Shown: positions 3,278 to 49,727 of the stretch, piece after piece | Layout: each line of letters opens with the position of its first letter | How positions within the stretch are numbered: position 1 is the stretch's first letter | Source: a virus | Lineage: Duplodnaviria; Caudoviricetes | Virus record (IMG/VR): IMGVR_UViG_3300018410_000011 | Location: 1-55,797 of that record | Length of the DNA: 55,797 nucleotides | Strand: one strand, 5' to 3' | Notes under the pieces: generated by a model | The model's database searches: none | The model's input: the letters and a program-made list of their open reading frames with translations, nothing else | What the model was told of the DNA's origin: nothing | Made by a program: the position numbers and the translations under genes

Positions 3278-4090
3278 ATGAAATATATTAATAAGGAATA
3301 TGTAGAATCAATAGATTCAAAATATAATAGTGGTGAAGTAATATCACGAAGAAAATCAATTTATTATAAAGGAAATCAATATACATTGAATGATAATGTA
3401 TATTATGTATTAAACAATACAGAAAAAATTGAATGGGCTAAATGTTATAAAGATCCTATTTATTTTATAGAAAAATATCTTAATATTAAATTAAGAAAAT
3501 ATCAAATTGAATGGATTAAATTATATAAAGAACAAAATATAATTTATAATGTTTCTAGACAAACTGGAATCAATTCTATATTATCAGCATTAAATTTACA
3601 TTCTATGATATTTAATAATCAAAATATTATACTTATTCCATGTAAATATAATATTGGTGTTGAATTCATTAATTTAATTAAAAAATATTATATGTTATTA
3701 CCATATTTTTTAAAACCAAATATAAAAACATGGAATAATAAATCTATTGAATTTACAAACAGTAAAATATGTGTATTTAATAATGATACTAATTTAGTAG
3801 AATATGATATTTTAGAATATCATGATTTTGCATTTAATAGCAATTATCCTAAGTTTGAAGTAGACAATAATAAATTAATTATTACATCAACACCAAATGG
3901 TAAAAATTATTTTTATGATCTGTATAAGAATAGTATATTACCAGAAGGACATCCAGATAAAAACAGTTTTAAATCTATTCAAACATATTGGTATGAAGTT
4001 GAAGGACGTGATGAACAATGGCGAATTAATGAAATAAAACGTTTAGGGAGTATTGATAAATTCAATAGAGAACATAATTTAGAATTTTAA
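3278..4090 (+). CDS. terminase large-subunit ATPase-domain paralogue (T4 gp17-like), degenerate
   Basis: KCYKDPIYFIEKY, LRKYQ, SRQTGINS (Walker A lacks Lys), ITSTPNG, WYEVEGRDEQW; no nuclease domain. Confidence 0.7.
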   Translation: MKYINKEYVESIDSKYNSGEVISRRKSIYYKGNQYTLNDNVYYVLNNTEKIEWAKCYKDPIYFIEKYLNIKLRKYQIEWIKLYKEQNIIYNVSRQTGINSILSALNLHSMIFNNQNIILIPCKYNIGVEFINLIKKYYMLLPYFLKPNIKTWNNKSIEFTNSKICVFNNDTNLVEYDILEYHDFAFNSNYPKFEVDNNKLIITSTPNGKNYFYDLYKNSILPEGHPDKNSFKSIQTYWYEVEGRDEQWRINEIKRLGSIDKFNREHNLEF

Positions 4091-7411: not shown

Positions 7412-8621
7412 ATGAATAAAGAAGAAATAGTAAAATCATTAGAAAAGATTTATAGTGAATCAACAGATTCACATAATATTTATACACCACTTGAATTGTG
7501 TGAAGAAATGATTAATTCATTAACTGATTTGAATGGTGATATTTTAGTTATATCTAATCTTGAATTTTTAATTGTTTTAAAACAAAAAGATGTTGATATG
7601 AATAATGTTCATTATTCAACTTCTTGTGATATTAAAAAACAAGTTGCAATTAGTTTAGGTGTTAATATAAACAATATTCATCTTTTAGAATATAACAATA
7701 AAGAAATCAATTTAGGAATAGAAGAAATGAAGTTTGATGTAATTGTTGCGAACCCACCATATCAAAAAGGTTTACATTTAAAATTTTTAGATAAATGTAT
7801 TGATATGAAACATGATGATGGTGAAATTATATTTGTCCATCCTGCAGAATGGTTAGTACAAAAAAGACAAACGTCCAGAACTAAATTACATGATATATTA
7901 AAATCTAAAATAAATGGTGCAAATATAACATTTATAGATAATCCATGGAATAATGTTGCATTATGGGTTCCGCTTGTTATAACCAATATAAATAATTCTT
8001 GTATTTATAATTTTAATGAAAAACGAAAATTTGTAAATAAAGAATATTCATTAAAATTAAAATCATTATATGATATATCATTTTTTGGTGTATTAACACA
8101 TATGCAATCAGTATATAATAAAATATATAATAAAGCAAAAGAAATATCATTTAAAGATATTGAAAAACAAAATTTAAATTTAAACAAATATATAACTTTA
8201 CATAGGTTTACTGGGTCTAATGTAGATTTAATAAATAAAACATCTTCTTTAGCTATGTTTAATAATATAGAAATATAAAATTTATGATAGATTTTTATTA
8301 CATAGAATAGATTCTAAACATTTTAATGTATTTAATGAACCACAATATGCAAGAACAGGGAATCAAAGATTATTTATGTCTTTTAATACTGAAATAGAAG
8401 CTCAAAATTGCTTGAATTTTTTAGGAAAATCAAAAGTATTTGTAGCATATTTTTCATATATAAAAATTGACCAACATGCTGCAGATACGCTATTATCTTG
8501 GATTCCTTGGTTAGATTGGACACAAGAATGGACAGATGATAAATTAATTGAATTTTTTAATTTAACAGATGAAGAAGTTCAAAATATAGAAGAAATAATA
8601 AATATAATTACAATAAAATAA
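7412..8621 (+). CDS. amino-methyltransferase catalytic/TRD part (NPPY), interrupted by a +1 frameshift near 8272
   Basis: FDVIVANPPY present; SAM-binding motif I degenerate. The +1 frame is open from about 8274 into ORF 8376..8621, whose end (WIPWLDWTQEWTDDKLIEFFNLTDEE) is a typical phage MTase C-terminus. Confidence 0.7.
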
Positions 8622-31103: not shown

Positions 31104-31652
31104 ATGGAAAATAAAACTCTACATATAAATTTATATGCTGGACCAGGTACAGGAAAATCAACAATGGCAGCTGATATATTTTCAAAATTAAAATATAAAA
31201 ATATTAATGCTGAATTAATAACAGAATATGTTAAAGAATTAGTTTGGGAAGAATCATTTAAAAAAATAACTAATCAAATATATTTATTTGCTAAACAATT
31301 AAAAAAACATTCTACTTTAGAAAATAAAGTAGATGTATTAATTACCGATTCAGCATTACCATTAGGATTAATTTATGATAATGGTAATACTAAGTATTTA
31401 AAAGAATTAATTCTTTCTGAATTTAATAAATTTGATAATTTAAATATTTTTTTAAAAAGAACTAAAAAATATAATCCTAATGGTCGAATGCAAACGGAAT
31501 TAGAAGCAATAGAAAAGGATAAAGAAATATTATCGTTTTTAGAAGAAAATAATATAGAATATATAACTATAGAAGCAACAAATACTGCTTATATAGAAAT
31601 ATTAAATATTATTAAAAAAAGAAGACCTAATTTATGGAACAACATACAGTAG
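31104..31652 (+). CDS. P-loop nucleotide kinase/ATPase (NadR/AAA_28-like)
   Basis: INLYAGPGTGKST, ITDSAL, YNPNGRMQT. Confidence 0.8.
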   Translation: MENKTLHINLYAGPGTGKSTMAADIFSKLKYKNINAELITEYVKELVWEESFKKITNQIYLFAKQLKKHSTLENKVDVLITDSALPLGLIYDNGNTKYLKELILSEFNKFDNLNIFLKRTKKYNPNGRMQTELEAIEKDKEILSFLEENNIEYITIEATNTAYIEILNIIKKRRPNLWNNIQ

Positions 31653-33219: not shown

Positions 33220-33765
33220 ATGAATCGAGTAATAATAATAGAAGGTGTACGAAATGTAGGAAAATCATTCTTAATATCTAAAATAGATAAACCTGAAAAA
33301 TATAAATTTATGTTTTCAGATTATTTTGTAAATTCATTTATATATGATTTTGATGAAACTACAATTGAATGTAATGATAAAAAAGAATTACACTATTTTT
33401 TATTAGGAACTGATGTATCTTTTCTAAATTTAATAAAAGAAAAAATAATAAATAAAGATTTAATCATAGATCGTGGATTTATTTCAACATTAGTTTTTGG
33501 TATTCAAGCAAATAGAATTACTTATAAACAAGCATTAAATCAAGGAAAATATATTTTAGACAAATACGGAAATAATATTAAAATAATTTTAGTATCATCA
33601 GAATTTAAAGAAGATAATAGAAATAAAGACATGTGGTCTTTTTATAATCAAAAAGAAACTAATGATTTATATTTAAAATTATTAAAAGATTTAAATATAG
33701 AATACGTAATTTTTAATAATGAATTTAAAGAAAAAAATATAGAAGAATTTAGAAATATGTTTTAA
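33220..33765 (+). CDS. dNMP (thymidylate-kinase-like) kinase
   Basis: IIIEGVRNVGKS, IIDRGFIS. Confidence 0.7.
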   Translation: MNRVIIIEGVRNVGKSFLISKIDKPEKYKFMFSDYFVNSFIYDFDETTIECNDKKELHYFLLGTDVSFLNLIKEKIINKDLIIDRGFISTLVFGIQANRITYKQALNQGKYILDKYGNNIKIILVSSEFKEDNRNKDMWSFYNQKETNDLYLKLLKDLNIEYVIFNNEFKEKNIEEFRNMF

Positions 33766-37043: not shown

Positions 37044-38195
37044 TTATTTTATAACTGACATTATTTGTCCTAAGTTGGACCAATCTAAATATTGCATATT
37101 GATAGCATCTTCTAATGTAATTACATGTAATTCTGTTCGTTCCGTGTCTTCTATATTTCCAAAAGTTTGACCAACACAAGATTTTATTTTATTCATTTCT
37201 AATTCTGATAAAGTATAAGAATATAAAAACGATTTATGTGTTAACATAGTAGAACAAATTTGTCTAGCACTTTCAAATATTAATTTTTCTATTTGTGGTG
37301 TAAATCCAGTTTCTTCTTCTAATTCATCAACCATAATTGTTTTAGGATCTACTCCTTCTTTTACGCTTGACCCACCTGGTAATTCATATACTTTACCTTT
37401 TGTATTATTAACTGGTGATCTAAATTCAGATACTAAAACTAATTCTGTTTTCATTATATCTTGATTTGGTAAGTATAAAACACATGAACTAATATCTGGT
37501 CTAGAAAATATAAATTCGTTATTTTTATATCTATTTTCATCACGGATATAAATATTAACCCATAAAGAAAAAGCAAATATTTTATTATTACTAGGAATAC
37601 GATAAACATTTAATACTTTGGCATCAGAAATCCAATTACGATTTAATTTTAATTGTTTATACCAAGATTGAAATTGTTCTGTTTTCCATATTTCTTGTGG
37701 TATAAATCTTTCTCCATCAATTCTTTTATAATCTTCTTGTGTTTCATATACATGTTTAATAGCAGAAAATAATTCATGATAAACTGGTACTTTTAAATCT
37801 TTTGCCCACCATTCTTGATAACGTACTGAATCTGCAGTTAATTCTGTAGACAAGATACATTTACCAGAATCTTTCCAGTAACCCCATTCATCATTCGTAG
37901 TTAACCCTAATAGTTCAGTCTTAGTATTTCTATTAATATGAAATAATATGTTATCTGACGCTCTTAAGGCACGAGTTTCCCATAATATTTGTGATTCATA
38001 ATTAAAATCTTCAAAATTTCCTTCTCTAGCTTCCGGTACAAATACGATACCATCATATCCAATTAGATTTAATATTTCTAATGCTTTAATTCTCCAACTT
38101 ATACCTACTTGTCCAGGTCTTAATGACGGACCAGCTAAAAATAAAGATTTATTAATTTCATTTGGTATAGATTCTTGTGCGTATATTATTTTCAT
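37044..38195 (-). CDS. nucleoside 2-deoxyribosyltransferase-like plus Nudix hydrolase fusion
   Basis: SLFLAGP..SWR..QILWE..TTNDEWG; ELPGG...ELEEETG. Confidence 0.8.
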   Translation of the reverse strand: MKIIYAQESIPNEINKSLFLAGPSLRPGQVGISWRIKALEILNLIGYDGIVFVPEAREGNFEDFNYESQILWETRALRASDNILFHINRNTKTELLGLTTNDEWGYWKDSGKCILSTELTADSVRYQEWWAKDLKVPVYHELFSAIKHVYETQEDYKRIDGERFIPQEIWKTEQFQSWYKQLKLNRNWISDAKVLNVYRIPSNNKIFAFSLWVNIYIRDENRYKNNEFIFSRPDISSCVLYLPNQDIMKTELVLVSEFRSPVNNTKGKVYELPGGSSVKEGVDPKTIMVDELEEETGFTPQIEKLIFESARQICSTMLTHKSFLYSYTLSELEMNKIKSCVGQTFGNIEDTERTELHVITLEDAINMQYLDWSNLGQIMSVIK

Positions 38196-38252: not shown

Positions 38253-38822
38253 TTAATTAGTAGAATTTGCATACCTTGTATTATATAATTCTTTTAATTC
38301 TAACCAAAATTTATAGTATTTAGATGGAATTTGTTCTGGTTTATAATGTCTACTATAACTTCTAAAAGTTGATCCAACAGAATAATTTGATCCTTTATAA
38401 TATTCCATACTTTCTGCTTTTGTATTAATATCAATAGCATATGTTATATATGAACCATCATAAAAATGTCCTTCTAAAATATCATAATCTGAATTATGTT
38501 TAGTATGTGAATTGAAATTTATTCTAACAAAGGAATTTCCAGCATTCTCATTAATATTAGTATCAACAAATTGTTGAATATCTGTAAAATTTTCATCTGC
38601 TTCAATATAATTTCCGTCTTCATCCTTTTTCATCAATTCAATAATATCGTGTCCTTTGATAAGGGCATAATTGACCCCATTATGTGTGTAAGCGATTATT
38701 CCATTTTCTAATCTAGCATCAGGAAATTTTGTGGCAACCATAGCCACATCAGTATTGTTAAAGTTAGAAGCAGTTCCTAATTGCTCATTCAATTTTTCAA
38801 ATATTTTAAAATTAGTAATCAT
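38253..38822 (-). CDS. MITNFK-leader protein
   Basis: Start at 38822, MITNFKIFEKLNEQ; TAATATATA at 38840..38848; internal INEN. Confidence 0.7.
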   Translation of the reverse strand: MITNFKIFEKLNEQLGTASNFNNTDVAMVATKFPDARLENGIIAYTHNGVNYALIKGHDIIELMKKDEDGNYIEADENFTDIQQFVDTNINENAGNSFVRINFNSHTKHNSDYDILEGHFYDGSYITYAIDINTKAESMEYYKGSNYSVGSTFRSYSRHYKPEQIPSKYYKFWLELKELYNTRYANSTN

Positions 38823-38850
38823 GATTTTATGTTTTATTTTATATATTAAA

Positions 38851-39057
38851 TTATAAATAATTCTCCATATCAAACCATGATATTATTAATGCATTAATAA
38901 TTAGAACTAATGAAGAACATAGGTATGTATAAGTTAAAAAAATTGACACATATCCTATTGCTATTAATATAGCAGATATTAATACAATTATTAAAGGAAT
39001 TAATAATAATATTGCTCTGATTTTTATTTGTTGTAAGTATTTATTTACTTTTTTCAT
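38851..39057 (-). CDS. small two-TM membrane protein
   Basis: Two hydrophobic segments. Confidence 0.55.
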   Translation of the reverse strand: MKKVNKYLQQIKIRAILLLIPLIIVLISAILIAIGYVSIFLTYTYLCSSLVLIINALIISWFDMENYL

Positions 39058-39524
39058 AATTTTAAAAAATTGTTTATTTGGTTATTTATTAGTGTTTTAG
39101 TTTTATTATCTATAATTTCATTATCATTTATAAGATTATTGATAGACGGAAAATATAATCTATCATAAAATGGTATAGCTTTAAGATATAACATTACATC
39201 ACATAAATGATCTACTCCACGTACATTACCTTGTAATCCAGCTGCAATACCTGTGAATAATATATGTTTATCTTTAAATGTATTCATATTGCAATTATCA
39301 ATTAATAATTTTAATTGTCCAGGATATGATCCATTATATTCAGGAATAACGAATATTATTTTATTAGAATTGTTTATATTATTTTGTACTTGTAATATAT
39401 CTGTGTTTGGATATATTAAATGTGTATTATACATTTCATGTAATATTTGATAGTAATATGTAGAAAATATTTGACTCTTATTACCAGTTCTATTAGTACC
39501 GTTTATTATTGTTATATCATTCAT
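39054..39524 (-). CDS. NAD(P)H-dependent FMN reductase (flavodoxin fold)
   Basis: GTNRTGNKS, PEYNGSYPGQLKLLID. Confidence 0.85.
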   Translation of the reverse strand: MNDITIINGTNRTGNKSQIFSTYYYQILHEMYNTHLIYPNTDILQVQNNINNSNKIIFVIPEYNGSYPGQLKLLIDNCNMNTFKDKHILFTGIAAGLQGNVRGVDHLCDVMLYLKAIPFYDRLYFPSINNLINDNEIIDNKTKTLINNQINNFLKL

Positions 39525-39529
39525 AATCT

Positions 39530-39571
39530 TTATATAAAAATTTTAAACAATTGTTTATATATCATATATAA
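39530..39571. promoter_or_regulatory. divergent overlapping TAAAC-N18-TATAA promoters centred on palindrome TAAACAATTGTTTA
   Basis: Plus strand 39544..39571; minus strand 39557..39530. Confidence 0.6.
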
Positions 39572-39576
39572 AGTTT

Positions 39577-40284
39577 ATGAATGAATATAATACATTTGAA
39601 GAAGCTTTTATTGGGCTAAATCAAGAATTAATAGAAAAATATCAATATAATATTGAATCACGTATTGGAACAACATTAGAAATTTGTCCTATTTTATATA
39701 AAATAAATGATGTATCAACATATAAATTTGATAATGAAAAAATAGGACGTTTAGATTATGAATATTGTGATACTTATTATAATTGGATGATTAGTGGAAA
39801 TACAGAAATTAAAGAATTGGCTGAAAAATATCCTAATACTTCTAGATTTTTAGAAAAACCAAAATCAAATCTTTTACCAGAAAATTTCAATACATTTTAT
39901 GGTCCAAGAATTAATTATCAATTAGAAAATATAATTAATGAACTTAAAAATAATAAAAATACTAGAAGAGCTGTTATATCTATATTAGATAAAGAAGATA
40001 CTAATTTATTAGCTTTAGATGAAACATTAGAATTCCCGTGTACAGATTCGGCAACATTTTATATTAGAAATAATAAATTAAATGTTCATGTACATATGAG
40101 ATCACAGAATGTTGGACAAGTAATTAAGTTAGATATGTATTTATGGGGTAGATTTACAACAGAATTAGCAAATAAATTAGGTTATGCGCCTGGTTCATTT
40201 ACGTCTAGTATTGTATCAGCTCATTTATTTACAAGAGATTTAGATTATTTAAAAGAATTAATAAACACATATAATGAGAAATAA
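39577..40284 (+). CDS. thymidylate-synthase-family dCMP-modifying enzyme (gp42-like)
   Basis: YGPR, TRRAVI, FPCT, MRSQNVGQVIKLD (Asp at the dUMP/dCMP specificity site), SAHLF. Confidence 0.75.
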   Translation: MNEYNTFEEAFIGLNQELIEKYQYNIESRIGTTLEICPILYKINDVSTYKFDNEKIGRLDYEYCDTYYNWMISGNTEIKELAEKYPNTSRFLEKPKSNLLPENFNTFYGPRINYQLENIINELKNNKNTRRAVISILDKEDTNLLALDETLEFPCTDSATFYIRNNKLNVHVHMRSQNVGQVIKLDMYLWGRFTTELANKLGYAPGSFTSSIVSAHLFTRDLDYLKELINTYNEK

Positions 40285-41929
40285 ATTAATATTAGATTTT
40301 GATGGTATTTTTGCATCAAATATGTTATATAATGAAACAGGTAAAAGTTATAAAACTTTTACTTGGGGCATTAGACACGCTATAGATATGTTAATTGAAA
40401 ATGGAATTGATGTTTATATAATTAGTGGAGATTCTACAGAAAAAGGACAATCCATTACTAGAAAATTTTGTGAAAATTTAAAAGTTAAAGAAATTACATT
40501 TACTAATTCTAAACATAAATTATCATATTTAAAGCAAAAATATAATTTAGATGAATGTTATTATTGTGGTGATGATATTTATGACGTAGAATTATTTAAA
40601 CATATGTACGGTATTACACATAAAAATACACATCATACAATAAGTAAATATGCTAAATATGTTAGTGAATATACAACATCAGATTATTTTTTTACTGATA
40701 TGTCATTATATATATTAGCTAAAAAATATAATACGGGTATAAATAATATTTCTAATTTAATTGGTAAAGATTGTAATAAAGAATCATTATCTGATTCATT
40801 AATGGATTTACGATATAAAAACATTTTTATATTACAGCAATATAGTATGAGAAACCATACCGATAATAAATATAATCCATTATTAGATGGTAATTTAAAT
40901 TTAACATTTAATAGAATTTATAATTCTGTTAAAAATAATCCAAATTTAAATTATACAATTACTATTCCTACTAATATAAATGAATCACAATATGAAACAT
41001 TGAAAATATTAGTTGATAAGATTTTTGGTGAAAATCGTATATTTTTTAAAGAAATAGAATATGGTATAAATGCACCAGCTAATTATGAGAAATTTTCTGG
41101 AGATTATATTATAGATAATAAATATGATTTGTTTATTACATATTTTGCTAATTATGGTATAAATATTGATAAATTTACAAATAATCAAGAATATAAAATA
41201 ATTTATTGTTTTAATATATCTAAAGTAAAAGATTTATCACGTGAATATATTGATAAATTTTTTAAAATTCAATATGAATCAGTTAAATCTTTTACAAATA
41301 AAGTTTATGTTTTAAATCAAAATCAAAAAGATTATTTTTTAGAATATTCAAAAGAAATTAATGATATATTTATAAAAGAATTACAAATAAAACAAAATGT
41401 TTTAGTTGATAGTCTTTTAATTAATAAAACATTTTTAAATAATCAAATTATTAATTTAATCCCAAATGAAACAAATGAAATTACACATGATTTTTTAAAA
41501 ATTTTAAAAAACAGAAAATCTAATTTCATATTTTTTCCATTTAGGTTATCAGATAAATGTTATGAATTTGAATTTTTATTAGAAAAAATAAGTAAAAGTA
41601 ATTCATATTATACAATATTTATAACGGATCCTAACAATACAATTAATGATTATATTATACCTAATAATGTAAATATATATAATTTACAAAATAAAAAATA
41701 TGATAGTAAAGTTATGTATTTATTATTTTTAATGTATTGTAATGAATATAATGTTAGTATTCCTGTATTTGAAAATCCTTTAATAGTTATGCACCAATCT
41801 ATTTTAGAAATGACGCATTTAACTGATAATGTTAAATTTTTAAATGTAAATAATTTTGATATTAAAACATTATATGATTTTAATGATATAACAGGTATAA
41901 AAGATAAAATAAAAAATTATATTAATTGA
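40274..41929 (+). CDS. KdsC-like HAD phosphatase fused to a putative glycosyltransferase-like domain
   Basis: LILDFDGI, ISG, K, GDDIYD; the C-terminal ~380 aa (FFPFRLSD, ITDPN) is unassigned, possibly GT-B. Confidence 0.6.
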   Translation: MRNKLILDFDGIFASNMLYNETGKSYKTFTWGIRHAIDMLIENGIDVYIISGDSTEKGQSITRKFCENLKVKEITFTNSKHKLSYLKQKYNLDECYYCGDDIYDVELFKHMYGITHKNTHHTISKYAKYVSEYTTSDYFFTDMSLYILAKKYNTGINNISNLIGKDCNKESLSDSLMDLRYKNIFILQQYSMRNHTDNKYNPLLDGNLNLTFNRIYNSVKNNPNLNYTITIPTNINESQYETLKILVDKIFGENRIFFKEIEYGINAPANYEKFSGDYIIDNKYDLFITYFANYGINIDKFTNNQEYKIIYCFNISKVKDLSREYIDKFFKIQYESVKSFTNKVYVLNQNQKDYFLEYSKEINDIFIKELQIKQNVLVDSLLINKTFLNNQIINLIPNETNEITHDFLKILKNRKSNFIFFPFRLSDKCYEFEFLLEKISKSNSYYTIFITDPNNTINDYIIPNNVNIYNLQNKKYDSKVMYLLFLMYCNEYNVSIPVFENPLIVMHQSILEMTHLTDNVKFLNVNNFDIKTLYDFNDITGIKDKIKNYIN

Positions 41930-41930
41930 T

Positions 41931-42551
41931 ATGATAAAAATTAGTAAACATATACAAAATACACAAAATTATTTAAATCAATCATTAACTGATTTATTAA
42001 CAGATAATAATATTAAAACAATAGATAATATAATTGAAGATATTATTAAAACAGTTAATAATAAAGGAAAAGTTATTTTTACTGGTATAGGTAAAAATGT
42101 GTATGCTGCACAAAAATTAGCTGCTTCTTATTCATCTATAGGTATTCCATCATTTTTTTTAGATGCAGTACATGCCGTACATGGTGATATAGGTGTAATG
42201 AATGATAATGATTTATTAATTTGTATGTCTAAATCTGGAAATACTTCTGAATTAATAAATACATTAATTCATATTAATAACAATAAAAAAACTTTTAAGT
42301 TTAAAGTAATAGGTATTGATTGTAATCCAGATAATGAAAATGGTTTTAATAAATATTGTGATTATTCATTATCTATTAAAACAGATAATGAATTAGATAT
42401 TTTAAATATGGTGCCAACTATTTCTTTATTAATGATTCAAATTGTTGGTGATATTATAGGTATAGAAGCAAGTGAACAATTAGGATTTAGTTCAGAAAAA
42501 TTTAGTATTAATCATCCTGGTGGATCTATTGGAAAGGCGTTAAGTAAATAA
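41931..42551 (+). CDS. SIS-domain sugar-phosphate isomerase (KdsD/GutQ arabinose-5-phosphate isomerase-like)
   Basis: TGIGKN, AVHGDIG, SKSGNTSE, PT.S, HPGGSIG. Confidence 0.85.
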   Translation: MIKISKHIQNTQNYLNQSLTDLLTDNNIKTIDNIIEDIIKTVNNKGKVIFTGIGKNVYAAQKLAASYSSIGIPSFFLDAVHAVHGDIGVMNDNDLLICMSKSGNTSELINTLIHINNNKKTFKFKVIGIDCNPDNENGFNKYCDYSLSIKTDNELDILNMVPTISLLMIQIVGDIIGIEASEQLGFSSEKFSINHPGGSIGKALSK

Positions 42552-44122
42552 TGACTAATAAAGGAATTATATTAGCAGGCGGTTTAGGAACACGTTTATA
42601 TAAATATACTAATGGATTATATCCTAAAATATTATTAAATTTAGGAAATTCTATATTTTTAGATAATCTTATAGAATTTTGGTTTAATGTACAAGAGGTA
42701 GAAGAATTAATAATAGTATTAAGTGAAAATGATCATATTTATAAAATACAAGAATATTTAAAAATTTTTTATAACGATAAAAATATAACATTATTAAAAT
42801 ACGATAAAGTAAATGGTACATTTAATACATTATTTTATGTATTAAATATGCGTAATGATTTATTAAAATCTAATTTAATAATATCATGGTCTGATATTAT
42901 TCCAACAGAAAAATTGAATATTCTTGAATATTCAGGTATAAAAATATTTACAGATAAAATATCAAGACATCGTTGTAATATTTGTAATTTAGGAATAATA
43001 ACAAATAAACCAGATTTAACAGGTAATATTCCTGGATTTTATAATATTAATGGATTAAATATTACTGATTGGATCAATTTTAAAAATTCTTATGAAAAAA
43101 TAAAACCAGAAATAGATATTACAGATTATTTGATAACATGTTCAAATATTATTCAAGAAAAAATAGATTTATTAGATATAGGTGATATTGAAAAATACGA
43201 AAACGTATTAAAAACACAAGATATTAAACAAAGATGGTTTAATAATATTATATTTAATACAGATAATGTAATTAAATCATCTAATAGTGATTATGGTTTA
43301 TCAGTAATTAAATCTGAAATTGAATTTTATAAAAAAATTCAAGGTACTGAAGCAGAAAATATATTTCCAAAAATATATGATTTATCAAATAATTCGATAA
43401 ATATGGAAAATTTATGTACTAATGGATATGTTACAGTAAATGAATTTTTAGAATCTAATCCTAATCAAGAAGATAAATTATTAGAAGATTATAAGAAAAA
43501 TATTAAAACATTACATAATATAAACCATACATTAACTAATTTTAATACAGATATTTATAAAGAATATATTCAAGTTCCTATTGAACGTTATTCTAAAATA
43601 AATTATTTTATTCCTAATATCGATATTTTAAATATAAATGATAAAGATATTTATATTAATTATGATTTTTATGAAACTATGGATAAGTTATTAAAATATT
43701 TTTCTAATAAAGAATTTAATATAGCCCTTATACACGGTGATACAAACAGTACTAATACTTTATATAATCAATCAACTAATAAAATAGCCTTAATTGATCC
43801 AAGAGGTAAATTTGGTAATACATTATATTACGGTGATACCAATTATGATTTAGCTAAATTTGTATATGGTATCACTGGTTATGATAAATTTAATTTAGAT
43901 AAGTATTTTAATTTTAATTTTTCTAATAATTTCCTAGACCTTAAAAAAATTAAAATAGATTTACCAGAATTAAATTTATTAGATAACCTAAATATTTCTA
44001 ATGATATAAAAATTTTAGTAGGTTTAATATGGTTAAAATTACCATTTTATATAAAAAATAATCCAAATAAAATAATAGCTTCTTATTATATAGGAATGTA
44101 TCTTATTAATAAATATTTATAA
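42551..44122 (+). CDS. NTP-sugar nucleotidyltransferase plus APH/choline-kinase-like fusion
   Basis: ILAGGLGTRL..PK; IHGD...N.L...LIDPRG...YDLAK. Confidence 0.8.
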   Translation: MTNKGIILAGGLGTRLYKYTNGLYPKILLNLGNSIFLDNLIEFWFNVQEVEELIIVLSENDHIYKIQEYLKIFYNDKNITLLKYDKVNGTFNTLFYVLNMRNDLLKSNLIISWSDIIPTEKLNILEYSGIKIFTDKISRHRCNICNLGIITNKPDLTGNIPGFYNINGLNITDWINFKNSYEKIKPEIDITDYLITCSNIIQEKIDLLDIGDIEKYENVLKTQDIKQRWFNNIIFNTDNVIKSSNSDYGLSVIKSEIEFYKKIQGTEAENIFPKIYDLSNNSINMENLCTNGYVTVNEFLESNPNQEDKLLEDYKKNIKTLHNINHTLTNFNTDIYKEYIQVPIERYSKINYFIPNIDILNINDKDIYINYDFYETMDKLLKYFSNKEFNIALIHGDTNSTNTLYNQSTNKIALIDPRGKFGNTLYYGDTNYDLAKFVYGITGYDKFNLDKYFNFNFSNNFLDLKKIKIDLPELNLLDNLNISNDIKILVGLIWLKLPFYIKNNPNKIIASYYIGMYLINKYL

Positions 44123-44156
44123 AAAAAAGAGACTCTAAAAAGTCTCTTTTTTTTTT
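44121..44156. terminator. bidirectional intrinsic terminator
   Basis: A-tract GAGACT-ctaaaa-AGTCTC T-tract between convergent genes. Confidence 0.8.
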
Positions 44157-44159
44157 ATT

Positions 44160-44759
44160 TTAAAATAAAGAAAATGTATTGTTTTCTTTATTTATATCTT
44201 TTAATAATTTTGTCATAGCTATCATTAATACTTTAGGAGAATGACCATATTCGTTTACTAAATATTCTGGTTTATATTTATCAAATATATTTCTTGTTTG
44301 TCTTTCTATTTTCTCTTTTTTATTTATAGTAACTATAACTTTACCTTGATTTAATAAATTATAATTATCTATGGCTTCTTTAGTTGAAACATTAAAAGAT
44401 TCTGGTAAATACCATACAGGACTATTTATAATAATAGCTTTAAATTTTTGTAAAAAAATATAACTAGATAACATAATTCCACCATTAGAAAAACCAACTA
44501 ATATAGTTTCTTCTGTATTTATATTTATTTTTTTTAATATTTCAAACCCATGTCTATAATAAGGTTCGAAACCAGAACTTCTATTTTTATCCTTTCCATC
44601 TGCTGGAAATATTACGTATACATTACATTCATTTGGTATATGATATGGACAAGCATATAGATTAGTGTTATATCCAGGGAAATATAATACAGTTTGTCCT
44701 TCTCTATTACCAAATCTATATAATTTCAATCCATTAAATAATGTTTTTATAAATATCAT
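44160..44759 (-). CDS. alpha/beta hydrolase
   Basis: VGFSNGG nucleophile elbow; C-terminal GH. Confidence 0.65.
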   Translation of the reverse strand: MIFIKTLFNGLKLYRFGNREGQTVLYFPGYNTNLYACPYHIPNECNVYVIFPADGKDKNRSSGFEPYYRHGFEILKKININTEETILVGFSNGGIMLSSYIFLQKFKAIIINSPVWYLPESFNVSTKEAIDNYNLLNQGKVIVTINKKEKIERQTRNIFDKYKPEYLVNEYGHSPKVLMIAMTKLLKDINKENNTFSLF

Positions 44760-44818
44760 TTTTTTTTTTTAACAATTATATAAATTTAAATTGTTATATT
44801 TGTAAAAAATAAAAAAAA

Positions 44819-45271
44819 ATGACAAGAATAAATGGAAATATTCCACCTAAATTATTAGTAGATTCACATTTATTAGCCGAATATAGAGAAATTATTAGAA
44901 TTCCTAATATGGTTAATTCTACTGATTGTAATATTATATTAAGTCGCTTAAAAAATGCACCGAAACAATTTGTATTAGGTAAAGGACATGTTTTGTTTTT
45001 TTATGATAAAATACTATTTTTACATAAAAGGTTTTTATCTATATTATTAGAATTAAAAGCACGAGGATTTACTACAACTATAGATGACACATTATTTAAA
45101 AATACAAATACATTATTTTATAATGACGTGGATTTAGAATATTCTAATAATATTGTATGTGAAAGGATATGTGAACGTATTTTAAATATGAAAAGTATTA
45201 AAATTAATAAAAAAAATATAGATAAAAATGTCTATATTAATTATTTAAAAACTAAATTAAATGAGAGATAA
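44819..45271 (+). CDS. denV: pyrimidine dimer DNA glycosylase / endonuclease V
   Basis: MTRIN..L.DSHLLAEYREI.RI..F.LGKGHVLFFYDK. Confidence 0.9.
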   Translation: MTRINGNIPPKLLVDSHLLAEYREIIRIPNMVNSTDCNIILSRLKNAPKQFVLGKGHVLFFYDKILFLHKRFLSILLELKARGFTTTIDDTLFKNTNTLFYNDVDLEYSNNIVCERICERILNMKSIKINKKNIDKNVYINYLKTKLNER

Positions 45272-45633: not shown

Positions 45634-46068
45634 TTAAATTAATTGTCTCACTTTAACACCAGCGTTGATTAAAAAATCAATACTTTCAGTTATTCTATAT
45701 TTTTCTTTATATACAACTTCTTTAATTCCGGCTTGTATAATTAATTTAGCACATTCAAAACAGGGAGATAACGTTACATATAAAATACTATCAGTACTTG
45801 AATTTGTAGATTTAGCTACTTTTGTAATAGCATTACTTTCAGCGTGTAATACTTCTTGTTTTGTTACTAATTTCCCATCTATAAGATTTTCTCCAGTATT
45901 ATCAAATCCTTTAGGAGTGCCATTAAATCCATAACTTATAATATTATCTTCAGCATCTATTAATACCGCTCCTACTTTCGCTCTAGTACAATGTGATAGC
46001 GATGCTACATTGCTAGCTATATTCATATAAACATTGTCAAACTGTTTTTTTCTTTTTTCTTTATACAT
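45634..46068 (-). CDS. dCMP deaminase
   Basis: S.C.RAKVGA, GFNGTP, HAESNAI, SPCFEC. Confidence 0.9.
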   Translation of the reverse strand: MYKEKRKKQFDNVYMNIASNVASLSHCTRAKVGAVLIDAEDNIISYGFNGTPKGFDNTGENLIDGKLVTKQEVLHAESNAITKVAKSTNSSTDSILYVTLSPCFECAKLIIQAGIKEVVYKEKYRITESIDFLINAGVKVRQLI

Positions 46069-46114: not shown

Positions 46115-47173
46115 TTAATTAGATAATGGTAAATTAATTTTATTGCTTGATTCATAATCAATAATTTCTAAATCATTAAATTTATAATCGAAGATATTTG
46201 TATATCTTCTTCTATGTATTAATAATTTAGGTAATTTATATCTTTGATTATTAAATTGTTCTTTAATAGGATATATATGATTATTATAAATGTGTGTATC
46301 ACCTAAATTAGATATTAATTCATCCGGTACCATATTTACATTTAATGCTAATAATTGTAATAATAACGCATAACTTGCTATATTAAATGGTAAACCTAAT
46401 CCAACGTCAACAGAACGCATATTAAATAATAAAGAAATTGATCTAGTTGGTAAATTTAATACATCACAATCATTATGTGTAAAAATATTTGGTGTATTTT
46501 TTGGTACTAAATTTATTCTTTCTTCTAGTGATAATTTTCTAGTAAATACTTGAAATGAATAATGACATGGTGGTAAAACAGCATTTTTTACATTTGTAGG
46601 ATTCCATGCCGTTACTAACATTCTTCTTGAATCTGGATTATTTAATAAAGTATTAACTAAATCTTGAATTTGATTGATATTATCATTCCAATTTACCCAT
46701 TCAGACCCATATACTTTATTCAATTCACCCCATACTTCATAAAATCCTGGATGATTTTCATCATCTTTTATAGCTTCTATAAATTCTTCTCTTGTATACA
46801 TTCTTGTATTATCTTTATTGGTAGTATCTAAAGATTTAACTAAATTAACAACAGAATATTTTATAGCTTCACTATTATTTTTATTATATTCAGTTACATA
46901 ATTTTTATAACAATCTCCTACCCAAATATATACATTATTATCTACTAAATATTTAATATTTGTATCACCTTTCAAAAACCACAATAATTCATGAAAAATA
47001 CCATTATAAAACATTTTTTTACTTGTCAATAATGGAAAACCATCATTCATATTGTGTCTTAACGTTCTACCAAAAACTTTTCTAGTTCCTGTTCCAGTTC
47101 TATCATCACTTTCATATCCATTAGAAATAACATCTTCTACTAAATCTAAATAATCTTTATCTAATTTATTCAT
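46115..47173 (-). CDS. thyA: thymidylate synthase
   Basis: DRTGTGT, ELLWFLKG, PDSRR, LPPCH, RSVDVGLGLPFN, DTHIY. Confidence 0.95.
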   Translation of the reverse strand: MNKLDKDYLDLVEDVISNGYESDDRTGTGTRKVFGRTLRHNMNDGFPLLTSKKMFYNGIFHELLWFLKGDTNIKYLVDNNVYIWVGDCYKNYVTEYNKNNSEAIKYSVVNLVKSLDTTNKDNTRMYTREEFIEAIKDDENHPGFYEVWGELNKVYGSEWVNWNDNINQIQDLVNTLLNNPDSRRMLVTAWNPTNVKNAVLPPCHYSFQVFTRKLSLEERINLVPKNTPNIFTHNDCDVLNLPTRSISLLFNMRSVDVGLGLPFNIASYALLLQLLALNVNMVPDELISNLGDTHIYNNHIYPIKEQFNNQRYKLPKLLIHRRRYTNIFDYKFNDLEIIDYESSNKINLPLSN

Positions 47174-48009: not shown

Positions 48010-48083
48010 ATTTTTTTTATATTTTTTAATTATATATGTTATATATTAAAATAATAATTTATATAATTGTAAAAAATATTGAA

Positions 48084-49727
48084 ATGCGAACATTAGAGGA
48101 AATAGTTGACTTAGAAGGATTAAAAACAAAATCAAAGAATTTAAAACAATTCTTCTATGATAAATTTATCAGAAAAAATATAAATTACTATTTTTTATAT
48201 AATTATCCTGAACTAATATCACTTTTCAAAAATTCTAAAAAAATAAATCTAGATCAAGTAAATTGGTATAAGATTTCATCTAATCAAAAATTAAGTGAAT
48301 CTTTTATTAGAGAATTTAAAGATAAAGTTGAGTGGTCTTGTATTTCTAAGTATCAAAAACTTTCTGAATCTTTCATTATAGAATTTCAAGATAAAGTTAA
48401 TTGGACTTATATTTCAGAATATCAAAAACTTAGTGAAAAATTTATTATAGAACATCAAGATAAAGTTAATCGGTCTTTGATTTCTAAGTATCAAAAACTT
48501 TCAGAAGAATTTATAAGAGATTTTCAAGATATAGTTGAGTGGACTAGTATTTCATCTTATCAAAAACTTTCTGAAGAATTTATAAGAGAATTTCAAAATA
48601 AAGTTACTTGGACTTGTATTTCAGCTTATCAAAAATTAAGTGAAGAATTTATAAGAGAATTTCAAAATAAAATTGATTGGTCTTGGATTTCTAAACATCA
48701 AAAATTAAGTGAAGAATTTATAAGAGAATTTAAAGATTATGTAGATTGGACTAGTATTTCATCTAATCAAAAATTAAGTGAAGAATTTATTAGAGAATTT
48801 AAAGATAAAGTTGATTGGAAGATGATTTCAGAATATCAAAAACTTTCTGAAGAATTTATAAGAGAATTTCAAGATAAAGTTGATTGGAAGATAATTTCAG
48901 ATAGTCAAAAACTGTCTGAATCTTTTATTCGGGAATTTCAAGATAAAGTAAATTGGAACATGATTTCAAAGTTTAAAAAATTATCTGAAGAATTTATTAT
49001 TGAATTTAAAGATAAAATAAATTGGTCTAATATTTCATATAAACAAAATTTAAGTGAAGAATTTATAAGAGAATTTAAAGATAAAGTAAATTGGTCATAT
49101 ATTTTAGAATATCAAAAACTAAGTGAAGATTTCATTAAAGAATTTAAAGATAAAGTAAATTGGTCTATTATTTCATCTTATCAAAAACTTTCAGAATCTT
49201 TTATTAGAGAATTTAAAAATAAAGTTTATTGGTATGGTATTTCATCTAGTCAAAAACTTTCAGAATCTTTCATAAGAGAATTTAAAGATAAAGTTGATTG
49301 GAGTTTTATTTCTAGGTATCAAAAACTTAGTGAAGAATTTATAAAAGAATTCAAAGATAAATTGGATTTAGATGAAATTAGAGATAGTTGGAATTATAAG
49401 GATGAATCTTTTAAAAAGAATCGAATTATAAAATCTGGACTATATGAATGTCATGATGACTATTTTATTGCATATAAAGGTATTAGAAGTGACAGACATA
49501 GTAATTTTAATTTTCAATTTCAATACTTACCTAATGAAACATATACATGTCATGCTGACTATTCTAATAATGAAAGTTCATTTGGTCTTTCAGTTTGGAC
49601 TGAAAAAAAAGCAACTGATTATTGTGATGAATTAGTAGTTAAAGTGAAAGCCTACTATAAAGATGTAGCTAGAATGGTACATAATAACGGTAAAATTCGT
49701 TGTAGCAAAATAACAATTCTAAATTAA
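48084..49727 (+). CDS. Trp-repeat protein with 16 x 23-aa repeats and conserved C-terminal domain
   Basis: Likely start MRTLEEIVDLEG at 48084; paralogue of 2..943. Confidence 0.85.
   Translation: MRTLEEIVDLEGLKTKSKNLKQFFYDKFIRKNINYYFLYNYPELISLFKNSKKINLDQVNWYKISSNQKLSESFIREFKDKVEWSCISKYQKLSESFIIEFQDKVNWTYISEYQKLSEKFIIEHQDKVNRSLISKYQKLSEEFIRDFQDIVEWTSISSYQKLSEEFIREFQNKVTWTCISAYQKLSEEFIREFQNKIDWSWISKHQKLSEEFIREFKDYVDWTSISSNQKLSEEFIREFKDKVDWKMISEYQKLSEEFIREFQDKVDWKIISDSQKLSESFIREFQDKVNWNMISKFKKLSEEFIIEFKDKINWSNISYKQNLSEEFIREFKDKVNWSYILEYQKLSEDFIKEFKDKVNWSIISSYQKLSESFIREFKNKVYWYGISSSQKLSESFIREFKDKVDWSFISRYQKLSEEFIKEFKDKLDLDEIRDSWNYKDESFKKNRIIKSGLYECHDDYFIAYKGIRSDRHSNFNFQFQYLPNETYTCHADYSNNESSFGLSVWTEKKATDYCDELVVKVKAYYKDVARMVHNNGKIRCSKITILN
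48258..49361 (+). repeat. coding tandem array of 16 x 69-bp units
   Basis: Unit encodes VxWxxISxxQKLSExFIREFxDK. Confidence 0.9.

Follow-up and report, generated by a model that had tools for sequence, protein, structure and literature searches.

The stretch of DNA analysed here, called the window in what follows, is the IMG/VR virus record IMGVR_UViG_3300018410_000011 at its full length of 55,797 bp, and this report concerns a cluster of four plus-strand genes within it, predicted to act in the modification of DNA cytosine, and a flavin mononucleotide (FMN) reductase gene that lies next to them. The four open reading frames (ORFs), at 39577-40284 (235 aa), 40274-41929 (551 aa), 41931-42551 (206 aa) and 42551-44122 (523 aa), are joined in order by an 11-nt overlap, a 1-nt gap and a 1-nt overlap. 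An earlier note, made from the sequence alone, had read them as an operon for a thymidylate synthase (TS) paralogue, a HAD protein with an unassigned C-terminal part, a KdsD/GutQ-like isomerase and a nucleotidyltransferase-kinase; this layout was confirmed, and the family assignments were supported by matches in Pfam, PHROGs and NCBIfam. A terminator-like hairpin with a T-run closes the operon (one such site was found against 0.4 expected from shuffled sequences), and in DNA this rich in AT nothing could be concluded from the promoter scan, with 58 sites against 82.5 expected. The features are collected in Table 1, where dCMP stands for deoxycytidine monophosphate.

Table 1. Predicted features of the four-gene cluster and its surroundings, with positions in the window.
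Feature	Position	Strand	Basis or remark
Weak candidate for a gp45-type (thymidylate-kinase-like) nucleotide kinase	33220..33765	+	BLASTP E 8e-4 to the kinase of locus L004 (see text), 4e-4 to RB69 gp45
SsuE/YhdA-like NAD(P)H-dependent FMN reductase, 156 aa	39054..39524	-	PF03358 FMN_red 2.7e-15
Predicted 5-hydroxy-dCMP synthase (TS-fold, flavin-dependent dCMP 5-hydroxylase), RB69 gp48 homologue	39577..40284	+	Homology, signature residues, tree
KdsC/YrbI-type HAD-IIIA sugar-phosphate phosphatase, N-terminal domain of the 551-aa protein	40274..40795	+	NCBIfam, Foldseek, HAD motifs
GT-B glycosyltransferase, C-terminal domain of the 551-aa protein, homologue of RB69 gp46:47 and DLP3 gp79 ('arabinosyltransferase 1')	40820..41929	+	Homology, fold model
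Arabinose-5-phosphate isomerase, SIS only, KdsD/GutQ/KpsF type, RB69 gp55 homologue	41931..42551	+	phrog_5670 1.3e-43
Bifunctional sugar-1-phosphate nucleotidyltransferase (N-terminal, residues ~1-235) and sugar kinase (C-terminal, ~238-523), AfhE / RB69 gp52:53 type	42551..44122	+	Pfam, PHROGs, RB69 alignment
Terminator-like hairpin with T-run closing the operon	44121..44154	+	Sole such site in 38800-44900; the next gene converges on it
dCMP deaminase	45634-46068	-	Pfam dCMP_cyt_deam_1 9e-26
Canonical ThyA	46115-47173	-	Pfam Thymidylat_synt 6e-84; D169 and N177 kept

RB69 gp48 and DLP3 gp80 convert dCMP to 5-hydroxy-dCMP (Lee et al., NAR 2026, PMC13326640). According to the same source, O2 is the origin of the oxygen and the gp48-type enzyme holds its FMN loosely; an Asn at the equivalent of position 169 in E. 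coli ThyA is proposed as diagnostic, along with N177D and L143E, and is shared by all homologues shown to form 5-hydroxy-dCMP. The TS paralogue of the window matches Thymidylat_synt (PF00303) at 4e-15, against 6e-84 for the true ThyA, and is 46% identical to RB69 gp48 (103/224); its best matches in the PDB are 9iqu, 9iqc and 9ir2 (E 1e-66), whereas the best ordinary TS scores 1.9e-12. The earlier note had observed that the paralogue has Asp where ThyA has Asn, and PCT instead of PCH; both differences are present, since the paralogue carries EFPCT and RSQNVGQVIKLD and the ThyA of the window PPCH and RSVDVGLGLPFN. A further change, which that note did not contain, is Asp169 to Asn: the RSQN of the paralogue aligns to RSVD in the window ThyA and to RSGD in PDB 7xyj. 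In E. coli ThyA numbering the paralogue has E143, C146, T147, Q168, N169 and D177, so the catalytic Cys146 is retained as the Cys of the FPCT motif. Because of the Asn169 signature and the identity to RB69 gp48, the predicted base is 5-hydroxycytosine and not hydroxymethylcytosine. The analogy to T4 gp42 drawn in the earlier note thus holds for dCMP specificity (D177), but not for the hydroxymethylation that it implied, and the paralogue is predicted to be a flavin- and O2-dependent 5-hydroxylase with 5-hydroxy-dCMP as product.

A search of IMG/VR with a TS alignment gave 49 loci, in which this signature was examined, as it was in the cultured Sphingomonas phage PAU (JQ362498). E143, C146, Q168, N169 and D177 occur in every one of the 28 loci that cover the sites at an identity of at least 37% (two loci were cut off), whereas Asp is kept in 17 of 17 weaker matches that cover position 169; the PAU homologue has N169 and D177. 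In a maximum-likelihood tree of TS homologues with 28 rows, the Asn169 proteins form one clade (support 97/93), and the window paralogue falls in the clade that contains RB69 gp48 (100/99). There it groups with the proteins of loci L004 and L010 (98/94), as sister to a T4-like plus high-GC group that holds RB69 gp48, although the deep order of the tree is unsure owing to the long branches of PAU, L067 and ThyA. Relatives of the window enzyme may be among the nine IMG/VR enzymes tested in the published work (PMC13326640).

The 551-aa protein, for which Pfam gave no match, is made up of two domains. In the first, residues 5-133 match the NCBIfam model TIGR01670 (KdsC) at 1.3e-12, and the 47.9 bits, below the curated equivalog cut-off of 106.95, place this domain by fold and HAD subfamily only, not within the equivalog. 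The model of the whole protein, built with 19 aligned fused homologues, has a predicted local distance difference test (pLDDT) score of 86.3, and its top Foldseek matches are the KdsC structures 4um5 and 1k1e (E 8e-9, template-modelling score, TM, on the target 0.75). The HAD motif residues D8, D10, S54/T55, K82, D101 and D104 are invariant in 19 of the 19 aligned sequences. No similarity was found between this domain and RB69 gp51, the AfhF-type phosphatase (best E 1.1), and tblastn detected no gp51 homologue elsewhere in the window. By analogy with the published pathway, we propose that the domain is the 5-phosphatase of arabinose-1,5-bisphosphate.

The C-terminal domain (residues ~183-551) matches RB69 gp46 (1.5e-6) and gp47 (5.9e-6) by tblastn, and phrog_3891 at 1e-29. 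RB69 gp46 and gp47 are described as a single gene split by a sequencing error, with its product named arabinosyltransferase 1 and MshA (3c4q) as the top Foldseek match listed for it (PMC13326640). Residues ~185-535 match a hypothetical protein of ~300 aa in 344 phage records, none of which covers more than 64% of the query; the stand-alone transferase homologues start exactly at the domain boundary and have the SMR...DGN motif in common with the fused ones. Structure prediction of this part, a check that the earlier note had proposed, returned a GT-B glycosyltransferase fold (AlphaFold2, pLDDT 88.3, 17 fused and 13 stand-alone sequences), with the GT-B enzymes LmbT, MshA 3c4q, tetrahydrobiopterin glucosyltransferase and WaaG as Foldseek matches (E ~1e-5, TM ~0.5). 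The homology to RB69 gp46:47 and the fold model both support the suggestion made in that note that the unassigned domain transfers the sugar. The same fusion was seen in 18 of 20 metagenomic homologues from the protein database (533-572 aa, at least 92% query coverage, 34-60% identity), and judged from these uncultured sequences the phosphatase-transferase fusion is a recurrent, conserved architecture. A search of viral contigs with the single 551-aa sequence found nothing, and a scan with an alignment of the family found one full-length relative.

The third and fourth genes complete the set. The isomerase, with a SIS domain in Pfam, matches the NCBIfam KpsF/GutQ (1.4e-30) and KdsD (2e-28) models, in both cases below the curated equivalog cut-offs, and is 36% identical to RB69 gp55 and 57% to the copy of L004. 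The fourth protein combines a Pfam NTP_transferase domain with a choline/fructosamine-kinase-like C-terminus and matches phrog_4098 at 1.7e-82; at least 80% of it is covered in 354 of the 355 matching phage records, and RB69 gp53 (nucleotidyltransferase) and gp52 (kinase) align to its residues 4-233 and 238-523, respectively. Since the phage records match it over the full length and gp53 and gp52 align in tandem, this fusion is the normal AfhE architecture. Both fused proteins had been regarded as unusual in the earlier note, which remains apt for the HAD-transferase protein but not for this one. An alignment search of genome contigs with the nucleotidyltransferase-kinase found no relative.

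The same 49 loci were used to follow the distribution of these genes. Of the 28 loci L010-L037, 26 have a homologue of the transferase domain, and in 24 of these it comes directly after the hydroxylase gene. The gp51-type phosphatase occurs in all 16 T4-like loci (L012-L027), which have neither the KdsC-type domain nor the FMN reductase (0/16 each), and the two phosphatase types are never found together. Among the related loci the KdsC-type domain is present only in L011, on the same contig as L004 and likewise fused to a transferase. This contig, IMGVR_UViG_3300025168_000033 (uncultured, 166.5 kb, 59% complete), has the hydroxylase, the HAD-transferase fusion, the isomerase and the nucleotidyltransferase-kinase in the same order as the window, at 44-57% identity, and it also has a homologue of the FMN reductase. 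It differs from the window in having a thymidylate-kinase-like gene between hydroxylase and fusion and two extra upstream ORFs, of which one matches a GT4-type transferase with a score at the Pfam cut-off; its reductase lies 3.7 kb away, past a ligase. The T4-like loci were also found to carry, in 9 of 16 cases (L012, L014-L017, L019-L021, L023), a homologue of the RB69 gp50 U32 'peptidase', which is present in none of the FMN-reductase loci; the U32 gene and the reductase may be alternative accessory genes.

The FMN reductase gene, also absent from the earlier note, points away from the TS homologue, with 52 bp between the two. Its product matches the B. subtilis YhdA/azoreductase structure 1nni in residues 4-122 (E 1.6e-6), and its NCBIfam MsuE/SsuE matches are weak and below the cut-off. 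An identity as an NrdI-like flavodoxin was considered and rejected, as the matches are to PF03358 and YhdA. No homologue was found at E 1e-3 in 50,697 phage records, and an IMG/VR scan with an alignment of three reductase copies gave four contigs, five including the window; the PEYN-S-P-LK motif is kept in all five phage copies. In four of the five contigs no more than 10 kb separates the reductase from an Asn169-type TS homologue: the two are adjacent in the window, and 3.7 kb apart in L004, 5.7 kb in L010 and 3.1 kb in L067 (whose TS homologue has the motifs EYPCT and RSNN...D). On L068, the fifth contig, 5.7 kb of sequence follows the reductase gene. The linked contigs have guanine-plus-cytosine (GC) contents of 0.20 (window), 0.32 (L004), 0.31 (L010) and 0.55 (L067). 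A complex prediction for the TS homologue and the reductase scored 0.00 in two runs, for which controls were not run, and counts neither for nor against binding. In L010 (9968-15759) and L067 (13405-16021) the Asn169 hydroxylase and the reductase are accompanied by a different protein of ~430 aa directly downstream, without a Pfam match; L010 also has an NAD-dependent epimerase/dehydratase and, within 10 kb, neither isomerase nor nucleotidyltransferase-kinase. This gene content suggests a different sugar on 5-hydroxycytosine in those phages.

Taken together, our findings make it probable that the cluster is a compact module which replaces the cytosine of the phage DNA with arabinosylated 5-hydroxycytosine. 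This proposal draws on homology, signature residues, fold predictions, gene order and co-occurrence, with the chemistry taken over from published relatives. We hypothesize that the TS-fold enzyme would hydroxylate dCMP at C5 with FMN and O2, the reduced flavin coming perhaps from the adjacent reductase; the 5-hydroxy-dCMP would be phosphorylated by kinases and incorporated by the polymerase. In parallel, the isomerase would convert ribulose-5-phosphate to arabinose-5-phosphate, the C-terminal kinase domain of the fourth protein would form arabinose-1,5-bisphosphate, the KdsC-type HAD domain would remove the 5-phosphate to give arabinose-1-phosphate, and the N-terminal nucleotidyltransferase domain would produce a nucleoside diphosphate (NDP) arabinofuranose, probably the uridine diphosphate form. 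Finally, the GT-B domain would transfer the first arabinose onto the 5-hydroxyl. The route from ribulose-5-phosphate to NDP-arabinose is the one anticipated in the earlier note, and its enzyme set stands by homology; the step order given there, with the phosphatase ahead of the kinase, does not agree with the published one, which is isomerase, kinase (to arabinose-1,5-bisphosphate), phosphatase and nucleotidyltransferase (PMC13326640, citing He et al.). More tentatively, and with a probability that we would put somewhat short of even, the hydroxylase and its own SsuE-like reductase may form a self-contained two-component flavin monooxygenase that makes cytosine replacement independent of the host flavin reductases, and the two bifunctional proteins may act together in a single assembly, with consecutive steps passing back and forth between the polypeptides and finishing on the DNA base.

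Several points tell against this proposal, some of them bearing on the module itself and others on the part given to the reductase. The 55.8-kb fragment yielded no dCTPase, no guanylate-kinase-like dNMP kinase and no further transferase (60 ORFs, Pfam; tblastn). This negative is weak, given that the transferase domain of the 551-aa protein likewise goes unseen by Pfam and that the record is 14% complete; with no second transferase seen, the modification could be a mono-arabinosylation, or such genes could lie in the missing part of the genome. The first arabinosyltransferase could not be reconstituted in the published work, and the first transfer may be onto either the nucleotide or the DNA (PMC13326640). 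In addition, the phosphatase is not of the gp51/AfhF type and its substrate is an assumption. KdsC-type phosphatases normally act on the 8-phosphate of 3-deoxy-D-manno-octulosonate (Kdo) or the 9-phosphate of 2-keto-3-deoxynononate (KDN), so the sugar could differ. The base would then be 5-hydroxycytosine carrying another pentose or a Kdo-like sugar, with the KDN-9-P phosphatase-like domain as the signal, and the different transferase paired with the hydroxylase in L010 and L067, along with the epimerase/dehydratase of L010, fits a sugar that varies within the lineage. Nevertheless, we regard this alternative as rather improbable: isomerase and AfhE-type nucleotidyltransferase-kinase both occur at full length, the transferase is a member of the family whose genes adjoin that of the hydroxylase in arabinosylating phages, and Pfam scans of the 60 window ORFs detected neither a Kdo-8-P synthase (KdsA) nor a CMP-Kdo synthetase (KdsB) family. 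A base of 5-hydroxymethylcytosine, made by a folate-dependent hydroxymethylase like T4 gp42 and then glycosylated, as was thought for RB69 in 2018, would agree with the TS fold and the D177 specificity residue that hydroxymethylases share, and with the many database records in which homologues are labelled dCMP hydroxymethylase; but N169, its occurrence in every published 5-hydroxy-dCMP-making homologue, the retention of D169 in weaker homologues with D177, and the position of the window enzyme inside the clade of RB69 gp48 make it very unlikely. It is scarcely credible, finally, that the sugar genes decorate virion proteins or host surface glycans while the TS homologue acts independently, in view of the overlap of the four genes in one operon and the presence of the transferase family next to the hydroxylase gene in 26 of the 28 loci L010-L037.

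The role of the reductase is much more evenly balanced. The reductase contigs share a wider gene order (guanylate-kinase-like gene, reductase, ligase), with ligase and kinases as common neighbours; the co-occurrence may therefore reflect common descent, which explains part of the linkage. Moreover, the reductase is absent not only from the arabinosylating T4-like phages but also from the high-GC loci (0/10, L028-L037, several on short contigs), and azo- and chromate reductases are among the members of its family. An enzyme of general redox metabolism or detoxification, or one that serves another flavoenzyme and is nearby by co-inheritance, is thus a serious candidate, to which we assign a chance slightly under one in two. 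Yet the linkage persists despite considerable divergence, the reductases being 20-29% and the TS homologues 27-54% identical to the window copies, and through rearrangement, the ligase lying between the two genes in L004, L010 and L067, whereas in the window they are direct neighbours. The loose binding of FMN and the use of O2 described for the published enzyme (PMC13326640) also argue against an unrelated reductase. We found no report of a phage flavin reductase linked to 5-hydroxycytosine in the literature searched, including the accessible part of that article. We put at about even the chance that the adjacent reductase does supply reduced FMN to the hydroxylase, its most likely role; because FMN is loosely bound on the published enzyme, a dedicated reductase is the most economical reading. 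Loosely bound FMN and the use of O2 are traits of two-component flavin monooxygenases.

With respect to the source, the window has a GC content of ~20% and a CheckV completeness of 14%, and it encodes the tailed-phage markers gp32-like single-stranded DNA-binding protein (SSB), T4-type endonuclease V and a phage helicase (Pfam, PHROGs); no tRNA gene was found in the search made. Both the SSB (46% identity) and a 1360-aa protein have their best matches in LR745206 and LR756501-4, uncultured genomes of 634-735 kb, with weaker matches in Lak phages and Tenacibaculum phage pT24. Those genomes have been assigned to the Mahaphage clade, with predicted Bacteroidetes hosts (Al-Shayeb et al., PMC7162821). 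By these matches the window is probably a fragment of a huge Mahaphage-like phage outside the Straboviridae, and a Bacteroidota host, as had been suggested, is plausible but indirect, its basis being the predicted hosts of the relatives. LR756504.1 (636 kb), the nearest complete relative by SSB match, gave a ThyA-like match only (25%, E 4e-4) and no match to the nucleotidyltransferase-kinase; since it is without the module, the module is not general to the Mahaphage-like group. Three other observations were made in the window. An Eco57I-type DNA methyltransferase domain at 7412-8278 (+) (PF07669, 8.9e-09) indicates that the phage may methylate its DNA in addition to modifying cytosine. The final ~70 residues of a 270-aa ORF at 3278-4090 (+) match the middle of the N-domain of the T4-type terminase large subunit (7e-05), and the gene may be split or interrupted. 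A 563-aa protein at 48036-49727 (+), without a credible Pfam family, is built from ~15 copies in tandem of a 23-aa (69-nt) repeat with the pattern QKLSEEFIREFKDKV.W..IS.Y.

Around the operon, the ThyA and dCMP deaminase genes indicate that, by gene content, the phage has a normal dTMP route alongside the cytosine pathway. A gp45-type kinase sits within the cluster in the relatives, and the candidate in the window has P-loop and DRG(F/Y)IS motifs that align with those kinases and only a sub-threshold AAA_14 match in Pfam. Apart from gp51, tblastn against the window gave no match to the RB69 gp45 kinase or the gp50 U32 protein, nor to guanylate-kinase-like kinases, to ligases, or to the transferases of L004, L010 and L067. 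Another P-loop protein (182 aa, 31104-31652, +; AAA_28 8e-09) could be a further small-molecule or nucleotide kinase. At 37044-38195 (-) a 383-aa fusion joins a nucleoside 2-deoxyribosyltransferase-like N-domain (PF15891, 4.5e-07) to a Nudix-box C-domain with weak resemblance to ADP-ribose pyrophosphatases and MutT; no homologue was found across the 49 related loci, and a role in the nucleotide pool, such as the clearing of dCTP, is conceivable. The 199-aa ORF that converges on the operon (44160-44759, -) has a GFSNGG motif resembling a nucleophile elbow and no family match in Pfam, PHROGs or NCBIfam.

Descriptions of the arabinosyl-5-hydroxycytosine (ara-5hoC) pathway date only from 2025-2026 and come almost entirely from T4-like phages of Proteobacteria; the present locus points to the same chemistry in a very AT-rich, probably huge, Mahaphage-related phage, with the phosphatase step filled by an unrelated HAD subfamily. 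Here the predicted first arabinosyltransferase is fused to a sugar-pathway enzyme, so that a gene fusion links the transferase to the pathway. A dedicated reductase partner, if true, would help in vitro work on a hydroxylase whose cofactor is loosely bound. DNA modified in the predicted way would likely resist many restriction enzymes, as reported for that of RB69 and DLP3. DNA with arabinosylated 5-hydroxycytosine may be under-recovered by some sequencing methods.

Compared with bacterial Kdo biosynthesis (KdsD-KdsC), the window has an isomerase of the same KdsD/GutQ family and a phosphatase domain of the same KdsC/YrbI family, but both score far below the curated equivalog cut-offs and stand in the context of a DNA-modification operon. 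Among cultured phages, the best matches of the nucleotidyltransferase-kinase (31-32%) are in PAU, Tenacibaculum phage PTm1 and Chryseobacterium phages MA9V-1/2, and PTm1 and MA9V-1/2 share this match only. PAU (L002, L059, L063) is like the window in having the Asn169/Asp177 TS homologue, a transferase homologue, the isomerase, the nucleotidyltransferase-kinase and a KdsC-type HAD domain (33% identity). Unlike in the window, its genes lie in two places ~20 kb apart: the transferase homologue is just upstream of the TS homologue, and the second site holds the isomerase, the nucleotidyltransferase-kinase and the HAD domain, there fused to a different C-terminal part (gp216) and not to the transferase. 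No reductase homologue was found in PAU or in any other phage record searched, and no gp51-type match was found in PAU, the latter being weak evidence. No report on the bases of PAU DNA came to light, though no search aimed at it was made. From these sequences, PAU is a cultured candidate for DNA with glycosylated 5-hydroxycytosine.

The closest published systems are those of Escherichia phage RB69 (gp45-gp55, gp3), Acinetobacter phage DLP3 (gp76-gp83) and E. coli phage HY126 (Afh proteins), which carry the ara-5hoC pathway (PMC13326640). The window resembles them in its predicted 5-hydroxy-dCMP synthase with the same signature, its arabinosyltransferase-1 homologue, its SIS-only isomerase and its bifunctional nucleotidyltransferase-kinase, as well as in the transferase following the hydroxylase gene. 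It differs from them in its KdsC/YrbI-type phosphatase, fused to the transferase, in place of a gp51/AfhF-type one; in the absence of a U32 gene (RB69 gp50) and of a second or third transferase from the window, and of a kinase gene from inside the operon; in the FMN reductase that adjoins it; and in its carrier, probably a huge phage of ~20% GC outside the Straboviridae. What is new with respect to the published kind is thus the phosphatase, its fusion to the transferase, the adjacent reductase and the phage lineage.

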